DNA of 64,000 nucleotides from Candidatus Sulfopaludibacter sp. (GTDB taxonomy: Bacteria > Verrucomicrobiota > Verrucomicrobiia > Limisphaerales > UBA11358): positions 15 through 64,014 of the forward strand of contig DATJNM010000074.1 in NCBI GenBank assembly GCA_035508155.1, read 5' to 3'. This document shows, piece by piece, positions 2,409 to 56,227 of this stretch. The stretch's first letter is position 1, and each line of letters starts with the position of its first letter. Both the position numbers and the translations under genes were made by a program. The notes beneath the pieces were generated by a model. The model saw only the letters and a list, made by a program, of their open reading frames with translations. It had not been told where the DNA came from and made no database searches.

Positions 2409-2493
2409 GTTTATGATTTGCGATTTATGTTTTTAGCAAACAACCGTTCGTGGCGCCTCGCCATCATAAATCAAAAATCATCAATCACAAATA
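2409..2493. repeat. Heptamer-periodic imperfect palindrome (TTTATGA family)
   Basis: Left arm TTTATGA TTTGCGA TTTATGT. Right arm CATAAAT CAAAAAT CATCAAT CACAAAT. The arms are reverse-complementary with a 7-nt period. Confidence 0.7.
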
Positions 2494-2495
2494 TT

Positions 2496-2999
2496 TCAAC
2501 GAGGTTGCCGGAACAGTCGTTCCCGGTTTTTGAACAGGTACCAGACGACCGCCACGTTGATGATGAGGACAATCAACAACCCGAGGTAATAATGGCGTGG
2601 GGTGTGGGGGCGGGGAATCAATTCAGCGATCTCGATTGGGATAAAGAAGGCCGATTCACCAATGGTCAACCAGATGGCCCATTTGGCGCGAAAGGACAGT
2701 CCCACGCCCTCGACGAGCAGGAATAGGCCGCAAAGAAATGTACCGGAAGCCACCTCGCGGACATTGTTGGGTGTGATGGTATCGAGCCAGTCGCCGATCC
2801 TGGCGAAAAAGGTCCGCTCCGGGTCCAGATGCACCCAGCGCAGAAACTGATCAAACACGTCCGACAAATCCTTGTTCGCCAGCGTTAAAACTCCCAGCGC
2901 CAGCAGGAGAAGCGCCACGCCCTTGATCAACTTGATCGCGGCGATGAAATACAGGGTTGGCGCGCGCTTTTTGGCGGACTTGGTGTTTTCGGTGGCCAT
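2496..2999 (-). CDS. Small integral membrane protein (DUF2127-like)
   Basis: 167 aa with about four hydrophobic helices. The N-terminus KKRAPTLYFIAAIKLIKGVALLLLALGV resembles the DUF2127 family as I recall it. Confidence 0.55.
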   Translation of the reverse strand: MATENTKSAKKRAPTLYFIAAIKLIKGVALLLLALGVLTLANKDLSDVFDQFLRWVHLDPERTFFARIGDWLDTITPNNVREVASGTFLCGLFLLVEGVGLSFRAKWAIWLTIGESAFFIPIEIAELIPRPHTPRHYYLGLLIVLIINVAVVWYLFKNRERLFRQPR

Positions 3000-3021
3000 C
3001 GAATTCAGTCTCCAATCTACT

Positions 3022-4023
3022 TCAAACCGCCGCCGGTGGCGAGACGGCTGAGGGAGGTCCGGGTTCAGTCACCGTGTTGCGCGACGCTTCCACCTTGATG
3101 TAATGCAGGACCACCGGCGCGAGGATCATCCCGGGAACGCCCATCAGTTTTTCGCCCAGCACCAGCCCGATGAGGGTCAGCCACATCGGGCTTTTAATCC
3201 GGTCGCCAATAATTTTGCTGTTGAGGAAATATTCCAGTTTGTGGATGACGATGAGAAAAATGAGCGCGACGAGCGCCATGTTCGGTGAGAGGGTGAAACT
3301 GACCCCGACGATCAGGGTGTTGCTGATGATGTTGCCGATGATGGGCAACAAGCCGCACAGGAACGTAAAGGCGACGAGCACGGTGGCATACGGATAGCCG
3401 TTCCAAAATAGGAAACCGGAAGTCAAGGCCGTATTGATGATGGAAATGATGATTTGCGCGCCAATGACCCGGGAGAAGCTGCGGTAAAAGTTTCGCGCCC
3501 GAATATCCAATTCGCGCACGACCGTCGCGTACAAGCTGTCTCGCGCGGTCTGGGGGTCATTCTCGGCGCCCGAGGTCGCGTTCAGGAAAAGCCCCAGCGC
3601 CACCACAAGCCCGATGAACAAGAGGACGATCTGGAAGGCGGCGGCGCGCAGGAAGCGTCCGGCGTTGGCCACATCTTCCTTCACCTCGTTGATGGCGGCG
3701 GCCTTAAAGCTGGCCGGATCGCTGAACGGCAGCTCCACCCCCTGCTTTTCTGCGTACCCGACGACGGCGGGAATCGTGGTTTCGGCGATCCTGGGCGCCG
3801 CGATGTAAGCCTGGCGTGAAAAATAAAACACGCCCCAACCGATGGCCGCGACGGCGATGAGATAGAGGGTCACACCCCAAAATTTGCTGCGTCCAAAGCT
3901 GAATTGTTGCAAGGCGAAGTAACCGAACAGGACGGTGAGAATCAGGGTTCCCAGGTGTAACCCGCCGGCCAGGAGCAGCAGTACCGCCATGATGACATGG
4001 GAAATGCGCGCCGGCTGGCTCAT
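3022..4023 (-). CDS. AI-2E family transporter (PerM/UPF0118)
   Basis: Polytopic membrane protein. The ...GLLPIIGNIISNTLIVGVSF... region is typical of the family. The ATG at 4023 (MSQPARISH) is preferred; the ORF-track start at 4065 would overlap glyQS. Confidence 0.7.
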   Translation of the reverse strand: MSQPARISHVIMAVLLLLAGGLHLGTLILTVLFGYFALQQFSFGRSKFWGVTLYLIAVAAIGWGVFYFSRQAYIAAPRIAETTIPAVVGYAEKQGVELPFSDPASFKAAAINEVKEDVANAGRFLRAAAFQIVLLFIGLVVALGLFLNATSGAENDPQTARDSLYATVVRELDIRARNFYRSFSRVIGAQIIISIINTALTSGFLFWNGYPYATVLVAFTFLCGLLPIIGNIISNTLIVGVSFTLSPNMALVALIFLIVIHKLEYFLNSKIIGDRIKSPMWLTLIGLVLGEKLMGVPGMILAPVVLHYIKVEASRNTVTEPGPPSAVSPPAAV

Positions 4024-4040
4024 GGCTGATTCATACACCC

Positions 4041-5666
4041 TCAGCGGATTTTCGGCAGCAACCAATTCAGCAATTCGCCAATCGCCAGCCGCTCCTGTTT
4101 GCCGTCATCGCGATAGCGCACCGTTACGGTGTCCTGCCACTCGGGCTTCTCCCCCAGGGTGTCAAAATCAATCGTCACGCAGAACGGCGTGCCCGCTTCG
4201 TCCTGCCGGCGATATCGCCGGCCGATCGCGCCCGCGTCGTCATAGAAAACATTCATGTGCGGACGCAGCCGATCGCGCACTTCCCGCGCTTTTTTTACCA
4301 GCTCGGGCTTGTTTTTCAGCAACGGCAGCACGGCCGCCTTGATCGGCGCGACCCGCGGATGAAATTTCAGCACCACCCGCGTTTCCAGCTTGCCTTTTTC
4401 GTCGGGCATCTGGTCTTCGTGGTACGCATTGCAAATCAGCGCCAGGATGAGCCGGTCCACGCCCGCGGACGGCTCGATGACGTGCGGAATGTATTGGCCT
4501 TTGGCCAGTCCTTCCGCGTCTTCCCTGGCTTCCTTTTCCCCCTTTTCCGCCTCGACGCCCGTTTTCACAAGATACTTCAAGCGTGCCTCGTAATAGCGTT
4601 TCGACAAGTCGGCTTTCCTGGCCTCCTCGAGTTTGCCCCAGGCGGCGCGCAGTTCCTCGTCGAAAACCCCCATCGGCTTGCCGGAGAAACGTTCGTGCTG
4701 GCTCAAATCAAAATCGCTGCGGGCGGCAATGCCTTCCAGTTCCTCGCCTGTCAGCTCGCCGTTCTCGTCACGTTTGCTGAACGGGAATTTGTAAAGAATG
4801 TCCACCGTGGCGCGGGCGTAATGCGCCAATTCCTCAGGTTTTTGCCAGTACTCGACCAGCGTGTTCCGCGGCAGGCCGATGCCTTCGTAAAAGGCGATAC
4901 GCTGTTCGACCCAGTATTTGTGCCACGCTTCCCAGCCCCAATCCGAATTACCGATTTCCGATTTCCGATTTCCGATTTCAGCTGCCGTGGCGACACGACC
5001 GGCGATGGCCTCCACCACCTCGTCGGGCTTGATGAAAAATTCCAGTTCCATCTGCTCGAACTCGCGCGAGCGGAAGGTATAATTGCGGGGGGTGACCTCA
5101 TTGCGAAACGCCTTGCCGACCTGGGCAATGCCGAAGGGCACCTTCTGACGCGACGTTTCCATGACATTCTTGAACTGCGCGAAAATCGCCTGCGCGGTTT
5201 CCGGACGGAGATAAGCAACGGCGGAGGCGTCTTGCACGGGCCCAACATAGGTCTGGAACATGAGATTGAAGGCACGCGGCGCGGTCTTCTCGCCATGGCA
5301 TTCGGAAACCGATTTACTCGGTTTTTGCGGACAGGGAATTTCGCCGGTTTGGTCCGCCCGAAAGCGGCCCTTGCAGGTTTTACAGTCAATCATCGGATCG
5401 CTGAACGTGTCCACGTGGCCGCTGGCCTTCCAGATTTGCGGCGACATGATGATGGTGGCTTCCAGGCCGACCACGTCGTCGCGCTGGCGGGTCATGGCGT
5501 GCCACCAGAGCTCCTTGACGTTGCGCTTGAGTTCGGCGCCCAGCGGGCCGTAATCCCAAAAACCGTTGATGCCGCCGTAAATTTCCGATGACGGGTAGAT
5601 GAAGCCGCGCCGCTTGCACAGCGACACGATTTTTTCCATGAGCACGTTTTCTTTCGGGTCAGCCAC
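4041..5666 (-). CDS. glyQS: Glycine--tRNA ligase (class II, homodimeric GlyQS type)
   Basis: MEKIVSLCKRRGFIYPSSEIYGGINGFWDYGPLG and the class II motifs are present; 541 aa. An alternative start is the ATG at 5639 (MEKIV). Confidence 0.9.
   Translation of the reverse strand: MADPKENVLMEKIVSLCKRRGFIYPSSEIYGGINGFWDYGPLGAELKRNVKELWWHAMTRQRDDVVGLEATIIMSPQIWKASGHVDTFSDPMIDCKTCKGRFRADQTGEIPCPQKPSKSVSECHGEKTAPRAFNLMFQTYVGPVQDASAVAYLRPETAQAIFAQFKNVMETSRQKVPFGIAQVGKAFRNEVTPRNYTFRSREFEQMELEFFIKPDEVVEAIAGRVATAAEIGNRKSEIGNSDWGWEAWHKYWVEQRIAFYEGIGLPRNTLVEYWQKPEELAHYARATVDILYKFPFSKRDENGELTGEELEGIAARSDFDLSQHERFSGKPMGVFDEELRAAWGKLEEARKADLSKRYYEARLKYLVKTGVEAEKGEKEAREDAEGLAKGQYIPHVIEPSAGVDRLILALICNAYHEDQMPDEKGKLETRVVLKFHPRVAPIKAAVLPLLKNKPELVKKAREVRDRLRPHMNVFYDDAGAIGRRYRRQDEAGTPFCVTIDFDTLGEKPEWQDTVTVRYRDDGKQERLAIGELLNWLLPKIR
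4943..4978. repeat. Tandem heptamer repeat (CCGATTT x4 on plus strand, GAAATCG on the coding strand) inside glyQS
   Basis: Exact units lie at 4951-4957, 4958-4964, 4965-4971 and 4972-4978, with a degenerate copy at 4943-4950. It encodes AEIGNRKSEIGNS. Confidence 0.9.
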
Positions 5667-6935: not shown

Positions 6936-7027
6936 GGCGGTTGGATTGGCATGGGTACAGGCTGGTGGGGCGGGGCTGTTGACGAGCCGGCTCGCGGGGA
7001 CGCTCACCCTGCCGAAAATGGCAAACC
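6936..7027. repeat. GC-rich structured palindromic element (core TGACGAGCCGGCTCGCGGG), copy 1
   Basis: Aligns over about 90 nt with 29649-29743. It contains the perfect 12-nt palindrome CGAGCCGGCTCG. Confidence 0.75.
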
Positions 7028-7610: not shown

Positions 7611-8108
7611 TTATTTCAGCCTTGCCTCTTCGAGCGTCCATTCATTCCGGCCGTCCGGAGGGCAATGGCAATGGGCCGCAAAAAAGCCGCCACGGTATTG
7701 CCAAAACCACGGCCAGATCTGTTCGCGGTCGGTTTGGGGAATTTTCAGCGAGGCCAATGCTTCCCGCGGGAAGAATTGAAACCGGCCCTCGGCATGATCC
7801 GGCGGCGGGGCTTTCAACTTCAATTTCAATTCGAACAAAAACATCAGCCAATGGGTCTGGCCTTGATAACCGTGCTCGCTGACCAGGCCGGTCAGATGTA
7901 GATCCATTGTTCGGACCGGGATGCCGAGTTCTTCCCCGGCCTCGCGGCTGGCACAGGCATAAGGCGACTCCCCGATGTCCATTTTCAATTTGCCGCCGCA
8001 CGGGCTCCAGAAACCGCGGTTGGGCTCCTGTGCGCGTTCGAGCAGAAGCACGTCGTCCCGCTCATTGAAGCAGTACAGCAACGTCGCGACTTTGTAGGGC
8101 AGCGGCAT
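7611..8108 (-). CDS. NUDIX hydrolase
   Basis: Nudix box GGKLKMDIGESPYACASREAGEELGI. Confidence 0.8.
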   Translation of the reverse strand: MPLPYKVATLLYCFNERDDVLLLERAQEPNRGFWSPCGGKLKMDIGESPYACASREAGEELGIPVRTMDLHLTGLVSEHGYQGQTHWLMFLFELKLKLKAPPPDHAEGRFQFFPREALASLKIPQTDREQIWPWFWQYRGGFFAAHCHCPPDGRNEWTLEEARLK

Positions 8109-8189
8109 TTGCGATTTCAGACTTTCGATTTACGGTCGCTTCTCAATGAAACCGGTCCATCGTAGATCGTAAATCGCAAATCGTAAATT
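8108..8189. repeat. Heptamer-periodic imperfect palindrome (AAATCGN family)
   Basis: Left arm TTTGCGA TTTCAGA CTTTCGA TTTACGG. Right arm TCGTAGA TCGTAAA TCGCAAA TCGTAAA. Confidence 0.7.
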
Positions 8190-8258
8190 CTTCATTGTCT
8201 CCACGCGGCAAATGGCTAGCATAACCGGCCTGATTTCGATTGCAGGGATAAATAATAA

Positions 8259-9380: not shown

Positions 9381-9810
9381 TTGAACTCCCACGGTGAAAA
9401 GTCTGACCGAACTCTCTGGTTTGAAACGCCGCACCGGCGTGGGTACCTCAACATCACCGTCATGGTCGAATGACTCGTCCGCAAAAGCGGTGTGCAGGAG
9501 GGACGTTGCCTCATCAACGCCTGCACATCACCGCCAGCGCCTATATTAACGATGCCGAAGACGGCCTGTTACACGATTACGATTTCCGGCTCAACCGCTG
9601 GCGCCACACGAGCCAACATCGCAATACCAGCATAGTCGCACCGGCGAGGACAACGCCGACGCGCACTTGAAACGCCAGGTCATGGGGCGCGAGGTCGTCG
9701 TGGCCATCACCCAGGGCAAACTCGACCTCGGCCCGTGGGAACAGATTTTCTACGGCGAATTCGACGACCGCCATCGCAAATGTGTGCTGGTGAAAATCAT
9801 CGGCGAATAA
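9381..9810 (+). pseudogene. YjbQ/UPF0047 family (secondary thiamine-phosphate synthase-like) pseudogene
   Basis: The family consensus is recovered only by joining three frames: LWFETPHRRGYLNITVMVE, an in-frame TGA (9471-9473), LVRKSGVQEG..INA, a shift near 9521, [24 protein letters not shown], a shift near 9598, then [56 protein letters not shown]...VLVKIIGE. Confidence 0.8.
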
Positions 9811-11099: not shown

Positions 11100-12686
11100 A
11101 TGCAAACGAAAGCGATCCTCTGGCTTTTACTCACATCTCTGGCCATGACTGCCCCCGCGGCGGAAATCGCCAAAACCAATGCCCCAGCGGAGGAAACCAA
11201 TTCTCCAGCCGCGAAAAAACCGGAACTGGCCGCCATCCCCGACGCGACGCACAAGCCGGTCTTCACCACCAATACGATCACGATTGCCGGGAAGCGGGTG
11301 ACCTACGTGGCCGAAACCGGCATGTTGCCCATCCTCAAACCCGACGGCACGTCGCGCGCCTCGGTTTTTTACGTCGCTTATACGCGATTACAGCTGGAAG
11401 ACAGAAGCCAGAAGACGGAGAACAGAAAGCCGGCCTCTGACCTCGGGCCTCAGGCCTCTGACCGGCCGGTCACGTTTTGTTTCAACGGCGGTCCCGGCTC
11501 TTCCTCCGTTTGGTTGCACCTCGGCGCGCTCGGGCCGCGGCGCGTGAAAATGAATGAGGACGGGACATTGCCCAAACCGCCGTTTGGCCTGGAGGACAAT
11601 CCGTATTCGATTCTGGACGGAAGTGATCTGGTGTTCATTGACCCCGTCGCCACCGGTTTCAGCCGCGCGACGAAGGATGAATCGGCGGCCGCATTTTTCA
11701 GCCAGTCGGCCGATCTGGACTCGGTTGGCGAATTCATCCGGCTGTGGACGACGCGACATGAACGCTGGCTCTCGCCGAAATATCTCTGCGGCGAGAGTTA
11801 TGGGGTCTTTCGCGCCGCCGGGCTCGCGGAACGTCTGCGTTCGCGTTACGGCATGTATCTAAACGGCCTGATTCTGGTCTCGGGCGTTTTGGATTTTGCC
11901 ACCATTGATGACGGGACGGGCAACGATTTGCCGTTTGAACTCTTCCTGCCCAATTACACCGCCACGGCGTTTTACTTCAAGAAATTGCCGCCGGATTTGC
12001 AGAGTGATTTGCCGGCGGCATTGGCCGAGGCGCGCAAATTCGCCAAAGGCGAGTACGCTTCCGCCTTGCAACAGGGCGCGGCGCTGCCCGACACTGAGCG
12101 GGGACAGATTGTCGCCGAACTCGCGCGGCTGACCGGTTTGAAACCGCAGGTGATCGAAGACAACCATCTGCGGATTGACTCCGGCGTCTTTCGCAAGCAG
12201 TTGCTCCACGACCAGGGCCTGATTCTCGGCGCCTATGACGCGCGCATTACCGGACGTGACGACGACCCGGCCTCGTCGTATCCCGATTTCGATCCCTCCT
12301 ACGCGGCGACGTACGGACCGTTCGCGGCGGCCATGAACGCTTATGCGCGCCAGGAATTGAAATTCGAGGATGATCTGCCCTACGAAATCATCGCGGGCGT
12401 GCAACCCTGGAATTACGGTGCGCACAACGATTATCCGAGCGTGAGCGACCAGCTCGCGTCGGTGATGAATCAAAATCCTTATATGCGGGTGCTGGTGCTC
12501 AATGGGATGCGTGACCTGGTGTGTCCGCAGGACACGATGCGCTACGCACTCGACCACATGCAACTCGACCCGGTCTATCGCACGAACATTAGCTACGCCA
12601 CCTTCGAAGCCGGCCACATGATGTACGTGAACCTGCCGGATCTAAAAAAGATGCACGGCATGCTGGAAGATTTTATCAAGCAGTAG
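11100..12686 (+). CDS. Peptidase S10 (serine carboxypeptidase) family protein
   Basis: FCFNGGPGSSSVWLHLG and GESYG motifs. The ATG at 11100 gives a signal peptide, MQTKAILWLLLTSLAMTAPAAE. Confidence 0.8.
   Translation: MQTKAILWLLLTSLAMTAPAAEIAKTNAPAEETNSPAAKKPELAAIPDATHKPVFTTNTITIAGKRVTYVAETGMLPILKPDGTSRASVFYVAYTRLQLEDRSQKTENRKPASDLGPQASDRPVTFCFNGGPGSSSVWLHLGALGPRRVKMNEDGTLPKPPFGLEDNPYSILDGSDLVFIDPVATGFSRATKDESAAAFFSQSADLDSVGEFIRLWTTRHERWLSPKYLCGESYGVFRAAGLAERLRSRYGMYLNGLILVSGVLDFATIDDGTGNDLPFELFLPNYTATAFYFKKLPPDLQSDLPAALAEARKFAKGEYASALQQGAALPDTERGQIVAELARLTGLKPQVIEDNHLRIDSGVFRKQLLHDQGLILGAYDARITGRDDDPASSYPDFDPSYAATYGPFAAAMNAYARQELKFEDDLPYEIIAGVQPWNYGAHNDYPSVSDQLASVMNQNPYMRVLVLNGMRDLVCPQDTMRYALDHMQLDPVYRTNISYATFEAGHMMYVNLPDLKKMHGMLEDFIKQ
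11394..11465. repeat. Heptamer mini-palindrome inside the S10 peptidase gene
   Basis: CTGGAAG ACAGAAG CCAGAAG ACGGAGA ACAGAAA is followed by CCTCTGA CCTCGGG CCTCAGG CCTCTGA. It encodes LEDRSQKTENRKPASDLGPQASD. Confidence 0.8.
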
Positions 12687-17275: not shown

Positions 17276-18137
17276 CGGGCGCGCCATTGCCGCGCAAATC
17301 CAGCGTGAACTGGCCGGGCGCATCGCCGCGTTGAAAGAGCGCGGGATCGTGCCCGGCCTCGCCTTTGTGCGCGTCGGCGAGGATCCCGCCTCCAGGGTTT
17401 ACGTCGGCCGCAAGGAAAAGGCCTGCGCCGAGCTTGGAATTTTTTCGGAAACGCACGTTCTGCCGGAGCAAACCCCTGAAAGTGATTTGCTCGCGTTGCT
17501 GGAAAGACTGAACGCCGATTCGCGCGTACAGGGGGTTCTCGTCCAGGCCCCTTTGCCAAAGCAAATCCGGGAGTCCGTCGTTTATGCGACCGTGTCGCCG
17601 CAAAAGGACGTGGATGGGTTCCATCCGGTCAACGTCGGCAAATTGATGCTGGGCGACCCAACGGGTTTCCAGCCCTGCACCCCGGCGGGTGTCCGCGAGC
17701 TGCTGGTCCGCTCGCTGGTGAACACGCGCGGTGCGGAGGTGGTGATTCTGGGCCGCGGCAACATCGTGGGCAAACCGATGGCCGCGATGCTTTGTCAAAA
17801 AGACAAAAATGCAAACGCCACCGTGACAATTTGCCACTCCGCCACCCGCGACCTCGCGGCCCATTGCCGTCGCGCGGATATTTTGATCGCCGCGATGGGC
17901 GTCGCGGAATTTGTCAAAGCGGAGATGGTCAAGCCCGGGGCGACCGTGATTGACGTGGGTGTTAACCGCGTGAAGGATCCGACGGCGAAAAACGGTTCGC
18001 GGCTGGTGGGCGACGTGGATTTTGCCGCCGTCCAGAAAATCGCCGGTCAGATCACCCCCAACCCCGGCGGGGTCGGCCCGATGACCATTGCGATGTTGAT
18101 GCAAAACACCGTGCGGGCGGCGGAGACGACCTTGTAG
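17232..18137 (+). CDS. folD: Bifunctional methylenetetrahydrofolate dehydrogenase/cyclohydrolase
   Basis: LIDGRAIAAQI...PGLAFVRVGEDPAS.VYV..K...VQAPLP...GRGNIVGKP...NPGGVGPMT. The alternative GTG start is at 17259. Confidence 0.9.
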   Translation: MLTSEAPDSVGTLIDGRAIAAQIQRELAGRIAALKERGIVPGLAFVRVGEDPASRVYVGRKEKACAELGIFSETHVLPEQTPESDLLALLERLNADSRVQGVLVQAPLPKQIRESVVYATVSPQKDVDGFHPVNVGKLMLGDPTGFQPCTPAGVRELLVRSLVNTRGAEVVILGRGNIVGKPMAAMLCQKDKNANATVTICHSATRDLAAHCRRADILIAAMGVAEFVKAEMVKPGATVIDVGVNRVKDPTAKNGSRLVGDVDFAAVQKIAGQITPNPGGVGPMTIAMLMQNTVRAAETTL

Positions 18138-18203
18138 CGGCGATCTGTGATCGTCGCATTTTGAAACATGAAATAATCAGCGGCCGTCACAGACTGCCGC
18201 TAC
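18134..18203. repeat. GC-rich double-hairpin palindrome (GTAGCGGCG.TCTGTGA.CG.CGC family)
   Basis: GTAGCGGCGATCTGTGATCGTCGC ... GCGGCCGTCACAGACTGCCGCTAC. The folD stop codon TAG (18135-18137) lies inside the left arm. Confidence 0.8.
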
Positions 18204-18215
18204 AATAACAAGAAC

Positions 18216-18674: not shown

Positions 18675-18751
18675 AGCCACAGATGAAACACGGATTGAAC
18701 ACAGATTCTAAAATCATTTTATCTGTGTTTCATCTGTGACAATCTGTGGCT
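18675..18751. repeat. Imperfect palindrome (CACAGAT family)
   Basis: AGCCACAGATGAAACACGGATTGAACACAGAT ... ATCTGTGTTTCATCTGTGACAATCTGTGGCT. It ends 3 nt before the next ATG. Confidence 0.8.
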
Positions 18752-19608: not shown

Positions 19609-19698
19609 GGGTAGGGCAGGTAGTCCTCTGCCCGCTGCGACCGTGGAGAACGGCACGCACGGACTCCGATGAATCGCGAGCGGCTGGCGCGTTCTACC
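19609..19698. repeat. GC-rich element (GGTAGGGCG... family), inverted copy with internal insertion
   Basis: GGGTAGGGCAGGTAGTCCTCTGCCCGCTGC...GGCGCGTTCTACC is the reverse complement of the 21097-21152 type. Confidence 0.7.
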
Positions 19699-19767: not shown

Positions 19768-21042
19768 ATGTCTCGGCTGCCGTTTGAATTCCTCCTCGCG
19801 CTGCGCTATCTGCGGCCCAAACGGACGTTCGTCTCCATCATCACGCTCATTTCCGTCGTCGGCGTCGCCCTCGGCGTGGCCGTGCTCATCATCGTCATCA
19901 GCGTCATGAGCGGATTCGACCACGATCTGCGTGCAAGAATCCTCGGTTTCAACGCCCACCTGCGCATCGTGGCGAACGGTGAAACCATGCAGAACTACGA
20001 CACGGTGATGAATCTGGTTTCTTCGAATAGAAATGTGGTCGGTGTGGCGCCATATGTCCTGGGCCCGGTGCTCATGGAAACGGAACCGGCCGGCAACCAA
20101 CAGCCGTTCTTTGCCGTGCCGTACTTGCGGGGCGCGGATCCTGCCCGCGAAAATGCGGTGAGCATGTTGCCCAAAAGCATCATCGCCGGAAAGTTCGACC
20201 TGAGCCGGCGCGGTCTGGTCATCGGCAGCGCGCTGGCCCAAAGCCTGAATCTGGCGGTCGGCGACCGGGTGGCGATTTATTCGCCGGACGAGTTGAAGAA
20301 AATGAAGGAACACCGGGGCAAATCGGACGAGGAGGCCGTCCTGCCGGATGATTACACCGTCACAGGCATTTTCGATGTGGGCTACTACGATTACAACTAT
20401 TCCATCGCCGTCACCTCGCTCGAAAACGCGCAGGAGCTTTACGACCTCGGCGACAGCGTGCATGGGTTGACGGTGATGTTGCGAGATCCCTATCAGGCAC
20501 CGGCGGTGGCCAAGGAACTGGCGGCCGTGTTGGGGCCGGGCTATGCCGTCACCACCTGGATGCAGGAAAATTCCGCCATTCTCGGCGCCGTGCTCGTTGA
20601 AAAAAATGTGATGTTTTACCTGCTGTTCTTCATCGTCATTGTGGCGGCGCTGTGCATTCTGAGCGCGCAAATCACCTTCGTGGTCCAGAAGACGCGCGAA
20701 ATCGGCATGTTGAAGGCGCTCGGCGCCACCCACCGGCAAATCTCCGGCGTGTTTCTTGCTCAAAGCGCCATCATCGGCGTATTAGGCGTGCTCATCGGCT
20801 ACGGTCTCGGGATCCTCGCGCTGACCTATCGCAATGAATTTCTGCACGTCATGAACCGGCTGACGGGCTGGGAGCTTTTTCCCGCCAAAATCTACGGCTT
20901 CAGCGAACTGCCGGCGATCATTGATGTCCGGGACATCATGCTGATTTGCGGAAGTTCGTTCGTCATTTGCATATTGGGTGGTGTGCTCCCTGCGTGGCGC
21001 GCCGGCCGTCTGAAACCCGTGGAGGCGTTGCGTTATGAGTAA
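19768..21042 (+). CDS. Lipoprotein-releasing system permease, LolC/LolE family (FtsX-like)
   Basis: MSRLPFEFLLALRYLRPKRTFVSIITLISVVGVALGV plus a C-terminal FtsX domain. Confidence 0.85.
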   Translation: MSRLPFEFLLALRYLRPKRTFVSIITLISVVGVALGVAVLIIVISVMSGFDHDLRARILGFNAHLRIVANGETMQNYDTVMNLVSSNRNVVGVAPYVLGPVLMETEPAGNQQPFFAVPYLRGADPARENAVSMLPKSIIAGKFDLSRRGLVIGSALAQSLNLAVGDRVAIYSPDELKKMKEHRGKSDEEAVLPDDYTVTGIFDVGYYDYNYSIAVTSLENAQELYDLGDSVHGLTVMLRDPYQAPAVAKELAAVLGPGYAVTTWMQENSAILGAVLVEKNVMFYLLFFIVIVAALCILSAQITFVVQKTREIGMLKALGATHRQISGVFLAQSAIIGVLGVLIGYGLGILALTYRNEFLHVMNRLTGWELFPAKIYGFSELPAIIDVRDIMLICGSSFVICILGGVLPAWRAGRLKPVEALRYE

Positions 21043-21052
21043 AAAAATGGGG

Positions 21053-21190: not shown

Positions 21191-21216
21191 TTATTCCGTT
21201 CCCGCGGAGGCCCGCC

Positions 21217-37057: not shown

Positions 37058-37069
37058 AAGGCTTCTTTG

Positions 37070-37148
37070 TCCGCGAATTACGCCAATTTTCGCGAATTTC
37101 TTTTGTCATTTTAAGAATCAATTCGCGTCAATTCGCGAAATTAGCGGA
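37070..37148. repeat. Imperfect palindrome (AATTCGCG family, not heptameric)
   Basis: TCCGCGAATTACGCCAATTTTCGCGAATT ... AATTCGCGTCAATTCGCGAAATTAGCGGA. Confidence 0.7.
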
Positions 37149-37161
37149 TTCTATGTTCAGT

Positions 37162-38259
37162 TTATACTTGTGCTGTTTTGAATTCAGTTAAATTCCAGAC
37201 CGGTTCGCCGACTTCCCTGGCGAGGTGGTGGAACTCCTCAAGTTCGGCCCTGGTGAAAAGCAGGCCGCCGTATTTCCTGGATAGCTCGCCATTTCGTGCC
37301 TCCGGCTGGCCGGGCAACAGGCACTTCTCGTTGCCGTGGCCGAGAATGTCGGCGATGATTGCCTTGACGTTCTGCGCCTGCGTGCGGCCCCTGGCGTAAT
37401 CGTTACCCCGGAGTGCGTCGGGATGGATGACCTGGAAATAAAACGTAGAGGCGCGCTTCTCCTCCGGGTCGCCGAGCGCCGTGCCGCGGATTTGCGGCAG
37501 CCCACCGCCGATGTAAGCGGCGTAAAGTTCGTCAATCAAACCCAGGCCGTAGCCTTTGTGCTGGCCGAACGGCAACAGCGCGACGGCTTTGTTCGGATCG
37601 TCCGTTTCCTTGCCGTCGGCGTCCACGGCGCAGCCGGGCGGAAGTTTCTTGCCTTCGCGTTTGAGCACCTGCACGCGGCCCATCGCCACGGTTGAAGTCG
37701 CCCAATCAATCACGATGGGAAAGCCAATCGCGTCCTGCGTTGGGAACCCCCAGGAATGCGGGTTGGTGCCCATCGTCGGCGTCTTGCCGCCGAACGGCAC
37801 GACTTCGGACGTGGCCGAGGTGCAATTCGTGTAGGCGATGAAGCCCTTGAGCGCGGCGTCCATCACGTAGCCGCCGCCCCAGAGATAATGCGTCGCGTTG
37901 TCCACGCTCACCATGCCGACGCCGTACTGGTCGGCGAGCTTCATGCAGGTGTCCATGGCCTCGTAAGCCACGGCCTGGCCGAGCTTGAAATGCGCGTTCC
38001 AGGTTTCGGCGGCGGCGAAGCGCGACGGCAGCTTCTCGATTTTCGCGCCGGGCTTCCAGCGGCCGACCTTGCTGCCGAACAATTCATCCAGGTGCAGCGC
38101 CTTGAGGGCGTTGTGCGTGCGGATGCCGTAGTACGCCGCAAAGGAACAAAACCGCGTCCCGGCGGCAGCCTCGGCGTCGTCATAACCACGCTTGAGATAC
38201 GCTTTCTTTACGAGCGCATCGTGCTTTTCTTTAGGAACAATGAAATAGGTCTCGGGCAT
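37162..38259 (-). CDS. Ldh_2 family (malate/L-lactate/2,3-diketogulonate-type) dehydrogenase
   Basis: About 365 aa. ...NPHSWGFP...IVIDWATS.VAMG.V... is a pattern typical of the family. The ATG at 38259 is used. Confidence 0.7.
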   Translation of the reverse strand: MPETYFIVPKEKHDALVKKAYLKRGYDDAEAAAGTRFCSFAAYYGIRTHNALKALHLDELFGSKVGRWKPGAKIEKLPSRFAAAETWNAHFKLGQAVAYEAMDTCMKLADQYGVGMVSVDNATHYLWGGGYVMDAALKGFIAYTNCTSATSEVVPFGGKTPTMGTNPHSWGFPTQDAIGFPIVIDWATSTVAMGRVQVLKREGKKLPPGCAVDADGKETDDPNKAVALLPFGQHKGYGLGLIDELYAAYIGGGLPQIRGTALGDPEEKRASTFYFQVIHPDALRGNDYARGRTQAQNVKAIIADILGHGNEKCLLPGQPEARNGELSRKYGGLLFTRAELEEFHHLAREVGEPVWNLTEFKTAQV

Positions 38260-38260
38260 A

Positions 38261-38368
38261 AACAATTGTGAACATCGAACGTTCAACATTCACCGCCCAA
38301 CATTCAAGAAAACGCCCGCGATAATGCTTGCTGCACATTCGGTGTTGAATGTTGATTGTTGCCTGTTC
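38261..38368. repeat. Heptamer-periodic imperfect palindrome (AACATTC family)
   Basis: Left arm GAACATC GAACGTT CAACATT CACCGCC CAACATT. Right arm CATTCGGTGTTGAATGTTGATTGTTG. Confidence 0.75.
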
Positions 38369-38376
38369 ATCTTTCA

Positions 38377-39354
38377 TCACACCACTTTCTTCACCGGCAC
38401 TTCCGGATTGACCTGTGCGATGGGCTTCTCGCCCTTCATCGCGAGGATGAGATTTTTCACCGAAGTTGTTGCCTGGCGCACGACGCTTTCATAAGTGCGC
38501 GACGCGACATGCGGCGTGCAGACGACGTTGGGCAACTTGAGCAACGGATGGTCCGCTGGCGGCGGTTCCTTGTCCAGTACGTCGGTGCCGTAGCCGCCGA
38601 CCTGGCCGGATTTCAGCGCTTCCACCATGTCATTCGTATTCACAATCTCGCCCCGCGCGCAGTTCAAAATCAGAACGCCCTTCTTCATTTTGGCGAACGA
38701 TTTCTCGTTGATCATGCCGCGCGTTTCCGGCGTGAGGTTCGTGTGCAGCGAAATGTAGTCGCTGGCGGCGAAAATGTCGTCGAGGGTGGTGGCGCGTTTC
38801 ACGCCATGTTCCTTCGCGAATTTCTCGTCCCAGTAAATGTCGAAACCGATCGGCGCCATGCCGAAGGCCTTCGCGCGGATGGCGACTTCCCTGCCGATAC
38901 GGCCCAGGCCGACGATGCCGATGGTCTTTTCCAAAAGCTCGTGGCCGGTTTTGCGTTTCCATTCGCCTTTGCGGCTGGCGTCCACGCCGTAGAGGAAATT
39001 TTTCTCCAGCGCGAGCAGTAGCAGGAAAGTATGTTCGGCGACGGTGGTGTGATTGACACCGGGTGTGAAGAGGACGGGAATGCCGAGTTCGGTGCAGGAT
39101 TTCACGTCAATCTTGTCCACGCCGATGCCATATTTGCTGATGACCTTGAGCTTGGGTCGCGCTTTTTCGAGCACCTTGCGTGTGATGGCGTCGTCGCCGC
39201 AGATGTAGCCTTCGGCGTCGCCGACGAGCTTGAGCGTGTCAGCCTCATTGAGCGGGCCGCGGGCGCGGACGATTTCCCAGCCGGTCTGGGCAAGCAAATC
39301 GTGGTGCGCGCCGGGTGTGTCCTGGAACGAAGTCGTCGTCAGTAAAATTTTCAT
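38377..39354 (-). CDS. D-isomer-specific 2-hydroxyacid dehydrogenase family protein
   Basis: GIVGLGRIGREVA NAD-binding motif and the ...CARG..V... / TPH catalytic pattern. Confidence 0.8.
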   Translation of the reverse strand: MKILLTTTSFQDTPGAHHDLLAQTGWEIVRARGPLNEADTLKLVGDAEGYICGDDAITRKVLEKARPKLKVISKYGIGVDKIDVKSCTELGIPVLFTPGVNHTTVAEHTFLLLLALEKNFLYGVDASRKGEWKRKTGHELLEKTIGIVGLGRIGREVAIRAKAFGMAPIGFDIYWDEKFAKEHGVKRATTLDDIFAASDYISLHTNLTPETRGMINEKSFAKMKKGVLILNCARGEIVNTNDMVEALKSGQVGGYGTDVLDKEPPPADHPLLKLPNVVCTPHVASRTYESVVRQATTSVKNLILAMKGEKPIAQVNPEVPVKKVV

Positions 39355-39366
39355 GCCGAACAAGGT

Positions 39367-39402
39367 ATAAAAAAATCAGCCTCCGCATCAATCACGGAGG
39401 CT
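39367..39402 (-). terminator. Rho-independent terminator after the PilZ-like gene
   Basis: Minus strand: AGCCTCCG tgattgatg CGGAGGCT ga TTTTTTTATA. Confidence 0.75.
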
Positions 39403-39438
39403 AATGAAAAAGTGCCTGTAGTTGTGAAAATTTGGCAC

Positions 39439-39774
39439 TCAACCGGCGCCCAGTTCAGAATAAACCATCGAATTCAGCCGTGATTGAGCCTGTTTGGACA
39501 TGCCGGTAAAGAGGAGGGAGACGTGGTAGCCGACGTGTTTGTTGCCGGAACAGGCAATGACCACGCCGCTGCACTGGATGGGATTCTCCTCCCGGGGCGA
39601 TTGCAAGGCAATCGTCATTTCCGTCCACAAATTGAACGGCACGGGGCTGCGAAATTCGACGCCGCTTTTGTGGATTACGACCGAATCGGGGGAAAGTTCG
39701 AGGCGGGTTTGCCGCGCTTCGACAGTAATTTGTTGCTGGAATGAACCAACAGTTTCAAGCTTTCTTGCACTCAT
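39439..39774 (-). CDS. Small PilZ-like domain protein (putative)
   Basis: 111 aa with a beta-barrel-like pattern (VIHKSGVEFRS..P....EMTIAL......IQCSGVVIAC). The assignment is tentative. Confidence 0.4.
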   Translation of the reverse strand: MSARKLETVGSFQQQITVEARQTRLELSPDSVVIHKSGVEFRSPVPFNLWTEMTIALQSPREENPIQCSGVVIACSGNKHVGYHVSLLFTGMSKQAQSRLNSMVYSELGAG

Positions 39775-39843
39775 AAGAACAGTCTAAAATAACATGCCAA
39801 CGACAAACGTCAAATTAGCGTCTGCGATTGCCCGGATAAGTTT

Positions 39844-40869
39844 TTACCACTCAATGACTGCCGCGCCCCAGGTCAGGCCGGCGCCGAAAACGATCAGTAA
39901 AATCAGGTCGCCGTGATGGATTTTTCCCGAAGCAACGGCTTCGTCCAGGGCAATGGCCACCGAGGCCGCGGACGTGTTGCCGTAGCGGTTCACATTGACG
40001 AACAACTGGTGCGGCGCCGCGCCGAGGCGTTCGCCGACGGCATCAATGATGCGGCGATTGGCCTGGTGCGGAATGATGCATTTGATTTTGGAAATATCCA
40101 CTTCGCAACGGCGCAACGCCTCCTGGGCCGCCGTGCACATGGCCTGAACAGCGCTCTTGAATGTCTCGCGCCCTTCCATTTGCAGGTAATGCAGTTTTCC
40201 GGTCACCGTTTCCAGGCTGGCCGGACAACGGCTGCCGCCGCCGGGCATGAAGAGCAAATTCGACTTTCCGCCATCAGCACCCATCACCGCCGTCAGCAAA
40301 CCGTGGGCGTTGGGACGGTTTTGCAGAATCGCCGCCCCCGCCCCGTCGCCGAACAGGACGCACGTGTTGCGGTCGTTCCAATTCACAATGGACGAAAGTT
40401 TTTCCGCGCCGATGACGAGCACCGTGTCATAGGTGCGCGACATGATGAATTGCTGCCCGACTTCCAGGCCGTAAATGAACCCCGAGCAGGCCGCCTCCAG
40501 GTCAAAGGCCGCCGCGCGCCGGGCGCCGAGTTTTTGTTGCACCAGACACGCGGTGGCGGGAAACGGCATATCCGGCGTGATGGTGGCCACGGTGATCAGA
40601 TCGAGCTGCTCCGCGGTGACCCCGGCCATTTTCATCGCCCGTTGTGCGGCTTTGGCCGCCATGTCCGAAGTGAATTCATTCTTCGCCGCCACCCGCCGTT
40701 CCTTGATGCCGGTGCGGGTGGTGATCCATTCGTCCGAGGTGTCCACCATCTTTTCCAAATCGGCATTGGTAAGAACCCTGGCCGGCACATACGAGCCGAC
40801 GCCGGTGATGGAACAGGTGCGTCCCTGGAAATTAAACCGGGCGCGGGGATTTTTGAATTTTGGACTCAT
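39844..40869 (-). CDS. fabH: Beta-ketoacyl-ACP synthase III
   Basis: ITGVGSYVPARVLTNADLEKMVDTSDEWI..RTGI..R, AACSGF active-site Cys, HQAN, GNTSAAS. Confidence 0.9.
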   Translation of the reverse strand: MSPKFKNPRARFNFQGRTCSITGVGSYVPARVLTNADLEKMVDTSDEWITTRTGIKERRVAAKNEFTSDMAAKAAQRAMKMAGVTAEQLDLITVATITPDMPFPATACLVQQKLGARRAAAFDLEAACSGFIYGLEVGQQFIMSRTYDTVLVIGAEKLSSIVNWNDRNTCVLFGDGAGAAILQNRPNAHGLLTAVMGADGGKSNLLFMPGGGSRCPASLETVTGKLHYLQMEGRETFKSAVQAMCTAAQEALRRCEVDISKIKCIIPHQANRRIIDAVGERLGAAPHQLFVNVNRYGNTSAASVAIALDEAVASGKIHHGDLILLIVFGAGLTWGAAVIEW

Positions 40870-42132: not shown

Positions 42133-42243
42133 ATTTGGTGATTGGCAATTTGTGGTTGGTTGAATTGTCAAAGGGTGGCCAGCCGCCCGTTTCACCAATC
42201 ACTTGTTTAACTTTTTAACTTAAATTCAATTTGTCCAATTCAG
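42133..42243. repeat. Possible heptamer-type element (TGATTGG/TGGTTGG words) at the rpmF/yceD junction
   Basis: AATTTGG TGATTGG CAATTTG TGGTTGG TTGAATT, with partial inverse partners CACCAATCAC and AATTCAATTTGTCCAATTC. Weaker than the others. Confidence 0.3.
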
Positions 42244-48442: not shown

Positions 48443-48552
48443 GCCGCAAGATGAAAATGACTAAAGAAGAGGAAGAATGAAGAAGCGATTTTGCACAAGC
48501 TCAATTTCTTGACGGCCATTTTGGCATTCTCCATTCTGCCTGAGAGCTTTTT

Positions 48553-54649: not shown

Positions 54650-54702
54650 GGACGTTGCGTTGGCGGTCCAAATTTCGGGGACGGCGACACGTCCTCCCTC
54701 CC
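54649..54702. repeat. GC-rich palindrome (GGGAGGG...CCCTCCC family), intergenic copy between convergent genes
   Basis: GGGACGTTGCGTTGGCGGTCCAAATTTCGGGGACGGCGACACGTCCTCCCTCCC aligns with 13674-13731. Confidence 0.7.
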
Positions 54703-54703
54703 G

Positions 54704-55396
54704 CTAAGGTTTTTCACCCCGCAACTTTTTCAACGCCGCCCGGGCCGCGTCGCTCTCGGCGGTTTTTTTGCTCTTGCCGGAACCGCGCGCCAGTTCCACC
54801 CCGGCGTGCTGCACGACACATTCAAATACCCGGTCATGATCGGGTCCGGTGGCGGCGAGGACATAGTATTCCGGCGCTTCGGGCGAGCGCGCCTGTAAGA
54901 ACTCCTGCAGCTCGCCCTTTGGATTTTCGATGGTCGGCGGCACGCTTAACTTGCTGAACGCCGCGCTGAATTGGCGCAAAACAAATTCCCGCGCCACGCC
55001 GAAACCGCCATCCAGAAAAATTGCGCCGAGCAGGGACTCAAATGCGTCCGCGAGCGTGGACGTCCGCTCCCGCCCGCCGCTGGTTTCTTCGCCGTGGCTG
55101 AGAATCAGGTGCGCGCCCAGATCGAGTCCGCGGGCCTGCTCGGCCAACGTGCGGCGGTTGACCAGTTTGGCGCGGCCCTTGGTCAGCGGTCCCTCATCGA
55201 ACGCGGGAAACTTTTCGTAAAGCTCGTGGGTCAGGATGAGCTGCAACACGGCGTCGCCGAGGAATTCCAGACGCTGATTGTGCGGCACCGGCACACCGCC
55301 TTCATGCGCAACCGACGGATGCGTCAGCGCCAGCCGCAGCAGACCCTCGTCGCGAAAGGTGTAGCCAAGGCGGGTCTGAAGGTCGGCGAGAGACAT
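54704..55396 (-). CDS. rnc: Ribonuclease III
   Basis: NQRLEFLGDAVL signature plus a C-terminal dsRBD (G.GKSKK.AE..AA). Confidence 0.9.
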   Translation of the reverse strand: MSLADLQTRLGYTFRDEGLLRLALTHPSVAHEGGVPVPHNQRLEFLGDAVLQLILTHELYEKFPAFDEGPLTKGRAKLVNRRTLAEQARGLDLGAHLILSHGEETSGGRERTSTLADAFESLLGAIFLDGGFGVAREFVLRQFSAAFSKLSVPPTIENPKGELQEFLQARSPEAPEYYVLAATGPDHDRVFECVVQHAGVELARGSGKSKKTAESDAARAALKKLRGEKP

Positions 55397-55504
55397 TTAT
55401 GATTTACAATTTATGATTGATGATTCCCCGACTACGAAACGATTTTCACCATGACCCGCGTGAATGTCTGCAATCGCAAATCGTGAAGCATAAATCATAA
55501 ATCA
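55397..55504. repeat. Heptamer-periodic imperfect palindrome (TTTATGA / AAATCGN words)
   Basis: Left arm TTTATGA TTTACAA TTTATGA TTGATGA. Right arm CAATCGC AAATCGT GAAGCAT AAATCAT AAATCAC. It abuts the rnc start and contains the upstream gene's stop codon. Confidence 0.8.
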
Positions 55505-56095
55505 CCCTTGCGCGGGTGTTCCGGCAGGTTGTCCGGAAGGCGTCTGCGACAAAGTGTCAGTTTGAGCCGGCACCGGCGGATTCAATCCGCGTTCGAGCAA
55601 CTCGGCCACGTCGCGCTGGACTTCCTCCAGCTGATCCAGCCGCAGTGCCGGGTCGGCAATGGCGAACACGTCGCCGGTCCGGGGCTGCTCGTAAATGAAC
55701 ACGCGCTTGCCCTCCCGCACCACCTCTTCCTTCACCTTGAGGATGCGCTTGCGTTCGAGCATGACGGCGAGGATGTAGCCGGCAGGCGCGTAACGCGGGT
55801 CGTTCTGTTCAATGAGTTTCCGCAGCAGGGTCTCGGCGGTGTCTTTGTGGATCGCGTCCGTGGCCGGCGCGGGCGCTTCATAAATGGTTTGCCAATGGGA
55901 AATGAACCCCTTCCGTTCGCGCGCGCCCTCGCTGAACTGGTTTTGCCAGCACGCTTCGCACACGTCCAGGCGGCGCAAATTCTCCGCGTGCTCGTTAAAG
56001 AGCAGCGTGTGCAGCGTCTGCCGGTCGGCAAACGGCTGTGCGCACGCCTCGCACGCCGAGGCGCGGGATTGAATGTTCCAATCGTTCATGGACAC
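55502..56095 (-). CDS. Hypothetical protein with N-terminal CxxC...CxxC zinc-ribbon-like motif
   Basis: 197 aa with CEACAQPF...CEACWQ. GTG start at 56095 or ATG at 56089. Confidence 0.55.
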   Translation of the reverse strand: MSMNDWNIQSRASACEACAQPFADRQTLHTLLFNEHAENLRRLDVCEACWQNQFSEGARERKGFISHWQTIYEAPAPATDAIHKDTAETLLRKLIEQNDPRYAPAGYILAVMLERKRILKVKEEVVREGKRVFIYEQPRTGDVFAIADPALRLDQLEEVQRDVAELLERGLNPPVPAQTDTLSQTPSGQPAGTPAQG

Positions 56096-56227
56096 GGAAA
56101 TTTAACCACGAATGACACGATTGGACACGAAGAAATTTCCGTTTTGACACGGATTGCACGAATTTTCACCGATGACCAAAAACGGAATTCCCAATTTGTA
56201 TCCGTGTCAATCCGTGCAATCCACGTC
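56091..56227. repeat. Imperfect palindrome (GACACGA / CACGAAT words, ~10-nt spacing)
   Basis: ...CCACGAATGACACGATTGGACACGAAG...GACACGGATTGCACG ... TCCGTGTCAATCCGTGCAATCCACGTC. Confidence 0.7.

Follow-up and report, generated by a model that had tools for sequence, protein, structure and literature searches.

Heptamer-built hairpins at gene junctions and within genes of a Verrucomicrobiia genome: likenesses to dispersed repeats and to slippage-prone arrays

Heptamer repeats have been an oddity of bacterial genomes since 1990, when Mazel reportedly described the short tandemly repeated repetitive (STRR) sequences of cyanobacteria, in which Elhai is said in 2008 to have found small dispersed repeats nested within Nostoc arrays; their over-representation was noted in 2007, and their origin and role are unexplained. 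Heptameric repeats are over-represented among bacterial simple sequence repeats (SSRs), for which polymerase slippage has been proposed (PMC4692102). In Xanthomonas there are about 185 GGGAATC arrays per genome, 70-75 cases being inverted pairs (Rehm et al., 2015, PMC4692102). Most of them (83%) have the same gene context in a sister species, where length and sequence vary while the single or paired type is usually kept, and Nostoc has arrays of the heptamer GGGGAYT (PMC4692102). Arrays of TAACTGA lie just upstream of start codons, and sometimes inside open reading frames (ORFs), in Beggiatoaceae, Cyanobacteria and Bacteroidetes (MacGregor, 2015, PMC4679880). Here we describe heptamer-built hairpins in a 64,000-nt stretch of DNA from Candidatus Sulfopaludibacter sp. 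(assembly GCA_035508155.1, contig DATJNM010000074.1, hereafter the window), where an earlier note had proposed that imperfect palindromes with arms of tandem degenerate heptamers occupy many gene junctions. On balance, we favor reading them as dispersed hairpins of 80-140 nt, comparable to repetitive extragenic palindromic (REP) sequences and MITEs (miniature transposable elements with inverted repeats), whose two arms repeat a degenerate 7-nt word in tandem, in opposite orientation, and are prone to slippage.

STRR sequences resemble these elements in being intergenic tandem heptamers, in forming several word families per genome, and in harboring very small nested palindromes, which are found here in the rnpA array, in the S10 peptidase array of the locus L086, and in the loop of element E4. 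They differ in consisting mostly of long direct arrays, whereas balanced inverted pairs with 4-6 units per arm are typical here, and their words CCCCAGT, TTGGTCA, and CAACAGT are absent from our word table; the organism here is a Verrucomicrobiia metagenome-assembled genome (MAG). The Rickettsia palindromic elements reported by Ogata et al. in 2000 are said to sit in frame in genes, in surface loops, without destroying the protein. In-frame palindromic insertions in protein-coding genes are thus common to both, but the Rickettsia elements are 100-150 nt long, with a family consensus and no short internal period, and belong to obligate intracellular bacteria of another phylum. The repeats of Xanthomonas and Nostoc are, as here, intergenic tandem heptamers, typically of about four units and of unknown function, and in Xanthomonas two convergent arrays on opposite strands also form heptamer-built inverted repeats (PMC4692102). 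Each of those genomes uses one G-rich, quadruplex-forming word, whereas at least six unrelated, mostly A/T-rich words are used here, and runs of three G, as in GGGAATC, are absent from AACATTC, ATTTRCG, AGTCGAG, AAGTCAG, and others. The window also differs from them in the filling of spacers from stop to start codon, in the alternation of families and empty sites at one junction, in the in-frame copies within genes, and in the phylum. The TAACTGA arrays, like ours, have 2-6 units, lie a few nucleotides from start codons or in some cases in ORFs, and use a word that recurs across phyla, but they are almost exclusively direct (169 direct sets and one indirect), with a single word and no hairpin (PMC4679880).

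REP sequences, the bacterial interspersed mosaic elements (BIMEs) that they form, and REP doublets forming hairpins (REPINs) are likewise abundant intergenic hairpins of about 100 nt made of inverted units, with several families per genome, evidence of dissemination within the genome, and positions between operon genes and at 3′ ends (Bertels and Rainey, 2011, PMC3116915; Ton-Hoang, 2012, PMC3333891). However, each REP unit is an imperfect palindrome, 20-40 nt long and with a conserved head, whereas the arms here are tandem non-palindromic 7-mers, and REPINs are tied to REP-associated tyrosine transposases (RAYTs), none of which was identified among the window genes. The earlier note had taken STRR and REP/BIME as the nearest analogues; the likenesses hold, but the inverted heptamer pairs of Xanthomonas are closer (PMC4692102). 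Heptamer arrays, inverted pairs included, are therefore already known from Xanthomonas, cyanobacteria, and Beggiatoaceae. New here are the coexistence of many word families that are not G-rich within a single genome, the prevalence of balanced hairpins filling stop-to-start spacers, the turnover of families at fixed junctions, the in-frame colonization of protein loops, and the occurrence of one word's palindromes in three phyla. As the earlier note supposed, no description of such elements was found in the literature for Verrucomicrobia or other bacteria of the Planctomycetes-Verrucomicrobia-Chlamydiae group. Nor was a description of the AACATTC word found: AACATTCAACATTC, GAATGTTGAATGTT, and two rotations matched only an unrelated plant-transgene paper.

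All of the sequences quoted in the earlier note were found where it had placed them, and eight of its ten palindromes are hairpins built of heptamers. The hairpins with clear word-built arms at gene junctions are given below with their RNA folding z values:

E1, 2409-2493: heptamer hairpin of the ATTTRYG/CRYAAAT family (z -2.6/-3.0), filling the spacer from the DUF2127 stop (2496) to the larB ATG (2403) and leaving 5 and 2 nt between itself and the genes on either side.
E2, 8106-8190: heptamer hairpin of the ATTTGCG/CGTAAAT family (z -4.2/-2.5), in a divergent spacer; it abuts the NUDIX start codon (8108), which its left arm overlaps.
E4, 21053-21190: AACATTC/GAATGTT Type A hairpin between lolC-like and lolD-like genes (z -7.1/-7.2), with a nested GC-rich repeat in its loop (21097-21152).
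E5, 30421-30516: AACATTC/GAATGTT Type A hairpin filling the rnpA-yidD spacer (z -8.0/-8.1).
E6, 32619-32711: AGTCGAG/CTCGACC hairpin filling the yidC-khpB spacer (z -3.4/-3.0).
E7, 35014-35093: hairpin of GTTGAAnn words with a period of 8, in the stop-to-stop spacer between convergent MFS and SDR genes (z -5.3/-6.2).
E8, 38261-38369: AACATTC/GAATGTT Type A hairpin from the 2-Hacid_dh stop to the Ldh_2 start (z -4.5).
E11, 55397-55504: ATTTATG/CATAAAT hairpin abutting the RNase III start codon (55396; z -2.8/-4.4).

In E1, E2, E4, E5, E6, E8, and E11, each arm matches itself at lag 7 with a frequency of 0.50-0.82, compared with 0.03-0.47 at lags 5, 6, 8, and 9, which bears out the central claim of heptamer-built imperfect palindromes of several word families at gene junctions. 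E7 had been counted with them: it is a good hairpin, but its words are of 8 nt, with arm matches of 0.52/0.70 at lag 8 and 0.46/0.29 at lag 7. RNA folding gives z values of -7 to -8 for E4 and E5, of -5 to -6 for E7, and of -1.9 to -4.4 for the elements at 2409, 8106, 32619, 38261, and 55397. The word families are AACATTC/GAATGTT (E4, E5, and E8), AGTCGAG/CTCGACC (E6), CAGAAGA/TCTGACC (the in-frame element E3, below), and ATTTRYG/CRYAAAT (E1, E2, and E11, to which an array in the prolyl-tRNA synthetase, or ProRS, gene belongs as AAATCGG), with CCGGASG (rnpA) and AAGTCAG (yidC leader) as words of single arrays. At seven co-directional junctions the base of the stem is 0-12 nt from the upstream stop codon, and at five of these seven it is 0-8 nt from the downstream start codon or overlaps it; a weak hairpin, E9, overlaps the end of yceD. 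The genes flanking the elements are probably co-transcribed. Motifs resembling a Shine-Dalgarno (SD) site at -6 to -18 precede only 6 of the 63 mapped genes, and translation initiation is thus largely SD-independent.

E11 is a 108-nt imperfect hairpin of about 38 bp directly upstream of rnc (54704-55396). In E. coli the hairpin of the rnc leader is a cleavage target of RNase III and serves autoregulation.

The 7-nt period was measured by self-alignment at a fixed offset, with strict (+1/-2, score at least 10) or lax (+1/-1, score at least 11) scoring and dinucleotide-preserving shuffles as controls. Under strict scoring, lag 7 gives 8 segments in the window and lag 14 gives 9, against 0-2 at every other lag from 4 to 15 and about 0.1 in the shuffles, and lax scoring yields 16 and 13, against 0-5 at other lags and 0.1-0.4 in the shuffles. 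Lags 7 and 14 thus exceed other lags and shuffled sequence in self-matches by a factor of about 10-100, and the excess of 7-nt tandem units that defines heptanucleotide long SSRs stands out against lags 4-22 and against shuffles, in the window as in the relatives described next. Ten of the 16 lax lag-7 segments lie within the non-coding 14% of the window, a roughly ten-fold enrichment over coding DNA. The signal extends beyond the window, contrary to one of the outcomes that the earlier note would have taken as a refutation: in 49 yidC-centered loci from other Verrucomicrobiia genomes (858 kb in total) there are 111 lag-7 segments, or 12.9 per 100 kb, compared with 3-16 segments (0.35-1.9 per 100 kb) at eight control lags that are not multiples of 3 (4, 5, 8, 10, 11, 13, 16, and 17). 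The lag-7 density among these relatives peaks in the closest ones, and it is only mildly raised in 31 outgroup loci, which include arrays in Saprospiraceae. An inverted partner scoring far above shuffled flanks accompanies 45 of 143 arrays, and about 1.4 Mb of sequence yielded 125 hairpins; close pairs of same-word arrays on opposite strands, as in Xanthomonas, are therefore a recurrent arrangement.

At orthologous junctions, relatives may have the element of the window, no element at all, or an element of another family. The elements are neither unique to the window nor one conserved sequence per junction, the two other outcomes by which the earlier note would have been refuted. The rnpA-yidD spacer is occupied by the AACATTC hairpin in the window and in L005, L006, L008, L009, L013, L014, L015, and L037; of these eight relatives, most have 78-89% YidC identity and one has 64%. 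L007 (85% YidC identity) has a clean empty site, ttgaaATGAATGTTcccc, in which the rnpA stop and the yidD start overlap and a single GAATGTT unit is retained across the yidD start. In L011, L016, and L017 the two genes overlap by ATGA with no trace of an element, L010 and L012 have a different hairpin made of AATGACT words, and more distant lineages have still others. Between yidC and khpB, the AGTCGAG hairpin is found in the window and L007, a hairpin of TTAAATG words in L005, L006, L008, and L015, a single CTCAACT array in L019, L020, and L053, and an empty spacer of about 30 nt in nine relatives. The convergent MFS-SDR junction has four different word hairpins, or nothing, according to the relative, and in L009, L013, and L050 it has an ordinary terminator-like hairpin with a T-run. 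At the position of E2, L085 has an array of another word. Most of 45 Verrucomicrobiia loci, reaching down to 53% YidC identity, have an array between yidD and yidC, with words as varied as GAAGTCA, GAATTCC, AGAATTC, AAGTGAG, AAGGCGG, GCAGATG, and more. A fixed array with many words is the pattern expected of concerted evolution by unit turnover. The two arms also change together: in the nine rnpA-yidD elements 88.5% of the cells are paired, against 84.3% after shuffling (none of 500 shuffles reaches the observed value) and 21-45% with a slid partner, and seven stem pairs have changed on both sides.

Turnover within arrays would be accounted for by purely local slippage, in which heptanucleotide long SSRs grow from chance seeds with no dispersal and the palindromes arise by local inverted duplication or template switching. 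The 7-nt period is a known signature of over-represented long SSRs, for which polymerase slippage was proposed (PMC4692102, citing Mrazek, 2007). The yidD-yidC array stays in place while its word changes between lineages, in-frame arrays vary in length among relatives with the frame kept, and the single GAATGTT unit at the empty site of L007 could be a seed. However, L007 stands amid element-bearing relatives by YidC identity and keeps an element-derived GTT codon, which favors loss over seeding. The presence of different families at one junction in closely related genomes, and the sharing of AAATCGG between the ProRS loop of the window and the S10 peptidase loop of other lineages, also argue against growth in place. 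Together with the distribution of the AACATTC word described next, this makes local slippage on its own an unlikely explanation, although it is the best placed of the alternatives.

A scan of metagenome contigs for (AACATTC)3 yielded at least 120 stretches, of which 80 loci were examined. Among the matches listed, 36 of the 80 are accompanied by an inverted partner, and the orthologous rnpA-yidD site accounts for only one. The palindromes take two forms, each reading alike on both strands: Type A, the form of the window, is (AACATTC)n-loop-(GAATGTT)n, about 100 nt long with a G+C content of about 0.58, and Type B is (GAATGTT)n-short loop-(AACATTC)n, with a G+C content of 0.45-0.68. Eight Type A loci have the common degenerate inner units AACGCCC-AAYATCSAA beside perfect outer units. 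Only two pairs among 17 Type A copies have similar flanking genes, which leaves at least 14 distinct junctions where copies are alike in inner units and in size, beyond the word itself. Independent local slippage is insufficient to explain the same architecture at so many unrelated places. Type A, at about 100 nt, thus has the many dispersed copies with a common internal sequence that characterize MITEs, and the elements are dispersed intergenic inverted doublets folding into hairpins of about 100 nt, as REPs and REPINs are.

Same-word palindromes are found in contigs of Verrucomicrobiota, of Prevotella, and with an Acidobacteriota label. The AACATTC palindromes outside the lineage include L104 and L132, in Prevotella and Acidobacteriota-labeled contigs; in the Prevotella contig of this group, which has Type B, PurD is 89-90% identical to Prevotella proteins. 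Other Type B contigs encode a MurA 86-88% identical to proteins labeled Thermoanaerobaculia or Acidobacteriota, although such MAG labels can be unreliable. A bolder reading is that heptamer-armed hairpins form a cross-phylum class of mobile elements, target stop/start junctions and exposed protein loops, where their design would make them tolerable, and are mobilized by possibly new machinery. The (AACATTC)n arm is open in all three frames and the (GAATGTT)n arm has a TGA-ATG stop-restart pair in every frame, and the stem would join stop to start in such a way that translational coupling survives a 100-nt insertion. We consider this extension doubtful. Elsewhere, a heptamer palindrome with the words GGCTGTC/GACAGCC was seen in a Pirellulales MAG (L058, 17810-17890), four palindromes of different heptamer words lie within a 5-kb stretch of a contig with 66% G+C (L142, 1123-5891), and L160 has 22 arrays in 6.3 kb.

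Some copies are translated. Those of the window are as follows:

ProRS array, 4947-4979, minus strand: AAATCGG x4.5, in frame, score 24.
E3, 11394-11465, plus strand: 72-nt heptamer palindrome (CAGAAGA.../...TCTGACC), in frame in the S10 peptidase gene, score 20.
RnpA array, 30032-30068, plus strand: CCGGAGG/CCGGACG, in frame, forming an N-terminal extension.
YidD-tail array, 30749-30778, plus strand: single array of AAGTCAG x4, score 21.

The earlier note had listed 4943-4978, 30039-30073, and 30749-30779 as tandem-only versions of the intergenic elements; the arrays are real but are translated, in ProRS, the RnpA N-terminus, and the YidD tail, respectively. It had also classed 11394-11465 as tandem-only, which was incorrect: E3 is a palindrome, inserted in a loop of the S10 peptidase immediately 5′ of FNGGPGSSS. 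Most S10 orthologs have a short loop (e.g., ETN..AAT) ahead of the conserved RPVTFCFNGGPGSSS, whereas in the window and its nearest relatives the 72-nt palindrome encodes about 17 extra residues. Other lineages have KSEIGNRKSE or longer inserts at the same site, and in two relatives with inserts the DNA consists of (AAATCRG)n arrays, one of them with a further nested element. A wrong start of the S10 peptidase as the cause of this feature is ruled out by the ortholog alignment, which shows an in-frame loop insertion. In L086 (10388-10460) a small element nested in the S10 array, in frame, encodes PVPRSTAEGG.

The variable loop of ProRS reads EIGNRKSEIGNS in the window, from (AAATCGG)n, and SAIRNPQSAIRNPQS in L085, from (AATCCGC)n, x4. 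The RnpA array keeps its position in the close clade and is shorter, yet still in frame, in L008; in distant relatives its place is taken by a short basal sequence. The C-terminal tail of YidD, which is not conserved, is made up of the AAGTCAG array, whose end lies 7 nt 5′ of the yidC ATG. A mini-palindrome of about 24 nt, of the TCCCGCCAGGCGGGA type, lies in frame in the 5′ array of rnpA in L005, L014, L016, L017, and L039. In L085 (11645-12375) a zinc-dependent alcohol dehydrogenase gene is called as two ORFs with an (ATTTGCG)x4.5 array inside it (11991-12022), and this array may be linked to the disruption.

We propose that the units of the arrays would be gained, lost, and homogenized by slipped-strand mispairing. 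This would account for the differences in length, the frame-kept shortening in one relative, and the change of word throughout an array at a fixed site. Over the time that separates species, whole elements in turn appear, disappear, or give way to others at junctions and in variable protein loops, as comparison shows for junctions that are filled, empty, or occupied by another family in close relatives, and as the same inner architecture at 14 or more unrelated junctions indicates. Such dispersal would call for a copy-and-paste mechanism. The earlier note had named a mobile or slippage-generated origin among its possibilities and had left the function open. Once folded, the hairpin would place the upstream stop codon beside the downstream start, and its shape, the stop-free words, and the in-frame lengths would limit the damage and allow the elements to be tolerated. 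The elements are most likely selfish or neutral DNA, because the mismatches of their stems have no G·U preference on the transcribed strand. It is plausible that the long stems are substrates of RNase III, and any role in mRNA processing, 3′-end protection, or translational coupling would be secondary.

Several observations weigh against dispersed, slippage-prone hairpins. Copies of the same family within the window have word arrays in common but not loops. No transposase, RAYT, or other mobilizing gene is present among the Pfam matches of the window genes, and Y1_Tnp has no match among them; no autonomous insertion-sequence candidate turned up in the loci examined, where no systematic search was made. 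The only clean empty/filled pair, L007 and the window, fits a 4-nt TGAA repeat that overlaps the array word and is equally compatible with deletion between short repeats, so no target-site duplication can be demonstrated. The covariation of the arms could be explained by selection for a functional hairpin instead of concerted evolution. The window and a 99.95%-identical contig differ at 17 positions over about 51 kb, all of them outside the arrays, so that ongoing slippage or mobility is not seen directly; there is no sign of rapid instability of the phase-variation type, and it is between species that orthologous arrays differ in length and word. Finally, the comparison of stem mismatches on which the selfish or neutral status rests involves about 100 mismatches and crude ORF-based strand calls.

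That comparison bears on the possibility that the hairpins are selected RNA elements, either RNase III or RNase E sites, 3′-end stabilizers, partial terminators or attenuators, or coupling devices. Their span from stop to start is suggestive, as is the base of the stem lying 0-12 nt from the stop and mostly 0-8 nt from the start, and since SD sites are hardly used (6 of 63 genes), the structure of leaders should matter for initiation. At the MFS-SDR junction the ordinary terminator hairpin of some relatives takes the place of the word-repeat hairpin of others, Type A copies often have an A-run before the stem and a T-run after it, the complementarity of the arms co-varies across relatives, and one element lies directly upstream of rnc. 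A transition in a stem leaves, on a given strand, a G·U pair that is tolerated by RNA or else an A·C mismatch. However, in 49 hairpins between co-directional ORFs the inferred transcribed strand has 50 G·U and 51 A·C mismatches. Folding of both strands likewise gave energies with no consistent preference for the transcribed one. The element stems are imperfect, A/T-rich, and 30-45 bp long, unlike the short GC-rich stem, small loop, and immediate U-tract of an intrinsic terminator, and a consensus terminator scan of 20500-40000 passed over all of the full elements E4-E8, whereas it picked out canonical sites at 26225 and 39405. At gathering thresholds, Rfam gave a single tRNA over the whole window and no family matching the elements. 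The junctions of close relatives work without an element, and selection of this kind cannot account for the in-frame copies within genes. No positive evidence for selection at the RNA level was found, and we hold it to be rather improbable as the origin of the elements.

It is very improbable that the arrays are binding sites for a protein. Many end 0-10 nt upstream of start codons, a position reported for the TAACTGA repeats (PMC4679880), and SD sites are rare. However, one genome has six or more unrelated words, and relatives differ in the word that occupies a fixed site, which makes a sequence-specific binder unlikely; moreover, half of each palindrome is the complement word, and arrays are likewise found at stop codons, in convergent spacers, and within ORFs.

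Imperfect palindromes of 60-140 nt between genes, such as those here, are similar in form to integron attC sites. The rotation ATTCAAC ... GTTGAAT of AACATTC even fits the core consensus RYYYAAC ... GTTRRRY in the correct order, but we reject this scarcely credible reading, as the flanks are core housekeeping genes syntenic over at least 40 genomes (rpmH-rnpA-yidD-yidC, lolCD, and gatCA), the window has no integrase, the AAC/GTT cores are confined to the AACATTC family, the core is repeated 3-6 times per arm unlike in attC, and the order of the cores is reversed in Type B copies.

This lineage, with its several word families, its filled, empty, or swapped junctions at 78-89% protein identity, and its translated copies in conserved enzymes, is a clean comparative system. 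It therefore makes testable the choice between copy-and-paste and in-place growth, the identity of a mobilizer, and the effect of a stop-to-start hairpin on operon expression where SD sites are few. The elements also mislead gene callers, as when the yidD start is called within a hairpin or repeat-derived peptides enter predicted proteins, and they can inflate apparent protein variability.

The window has a G+C content of 58.3% and is 99.95-99.98% identical to the European Nucleotide Archive (ENA) metagenome contig ERZ27256562:k141_3171323. By YidC it belongs with uncultured Verrucomicrobiia of soil and peat, several of which have the Limisphaerales label, and the closest species representative has 89% YidC identity. 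The gene map combines the gene calls of that contig with Pfam matches for the final 13 kb. Two starts were corrected by comparison: that of yidD, whose original call fell inside the hairpin, is most probably the TTG at 30508, as suggested by L007, in the last repeat units of E5, and the true start of larB is the ATG at 2403. An assembly artifact is rejected, because the elements are identical in the independent 99.95%-identical ENA contig and related elements are present in long contigs, up to 2.2-4.6 Mb, from other projects.

The remaining features of the list are weak or marginal:

E9, 42133-42243: between rpmF and yceD, a weak hairpin (z -2.2/-1.8) that lacks a clear 7-nt period.
E10, 48452-48542: between divergent Wzy_C and M29 genes, a weak inverted repeat (z -0.7/-2.1) that likewise lacks a clear 7-nt period.
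LarC inverted pair, 798-868, minus strand: weak heptamer arrays GGGTGAC / GTCACGC inside coding sequence.
MutL array, 57581-57620: marginal, score 9.

E9 and E10 had been put forward as possible further elements, a suggestion that their z values (-0.7 to -2.2) and lack of a clear period do not uphold. E9 has only short words in common with hairpins at other junctions of relatives, and the 13-mer AATGACTAAAGAA of E10 also occurs, marginally, in the rnpA-yidD hairpins of L012 and L048. Their membership in families from other junctions was rejected, as beyond this one 13-mer the alignments are no better than shuffled controls. The array at 57581-57620, also proposed earlier, is detectable within MutL, though at the margin of scoring. 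The peptide encoded at 798-868 in LarC looks linker-like from its sequence.

Other repeats accompany the heptamer elements. Strong intergenic hairpins (z -4.7 to -8) lie at 18132-18205, 18676-18745, 37066-37152, and 56137-56236, and their arms are tandem words of 9-11 nt, such as CACAGATGAAA and CGCGAATTn. Word-built arms are thus general in this genome, with 7 nt as the commonest period. A GC-rich repeat of about 56 nt, GGTAGGGCGGGCAGTCCTCTGCCCGCC..., occurs alone at 19618-19650 and inverted in the loop of E4 (21097-21152), and L105, an unrelated AACATTC element from a metagenome, has a homologous insert in its loop. The short GC-rich repeat GACGAGCCGGCTCGCGGG is found in palindromic contexts in two intergenic regions (6981-6998 and 29692-29709).

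Among the genes, larB (AIRC; 1650-2403, minus strand) has an apparent frameshift near 2265-2275: its conserved N-terminus begins at the ATG at 2403 in a frame that differs from that of the called ORF (1650-2300), and the two assemblies are identical throughout the gene. A 42-residue YjbQ fragment (9682-9810) and a DUF7010 gene split into two ORFs (26942-27481) are both pseudogene-like. A tRNA-Asp (GTC) at 59833-59909 is the sole Rfam or ARAGORN match in the window.

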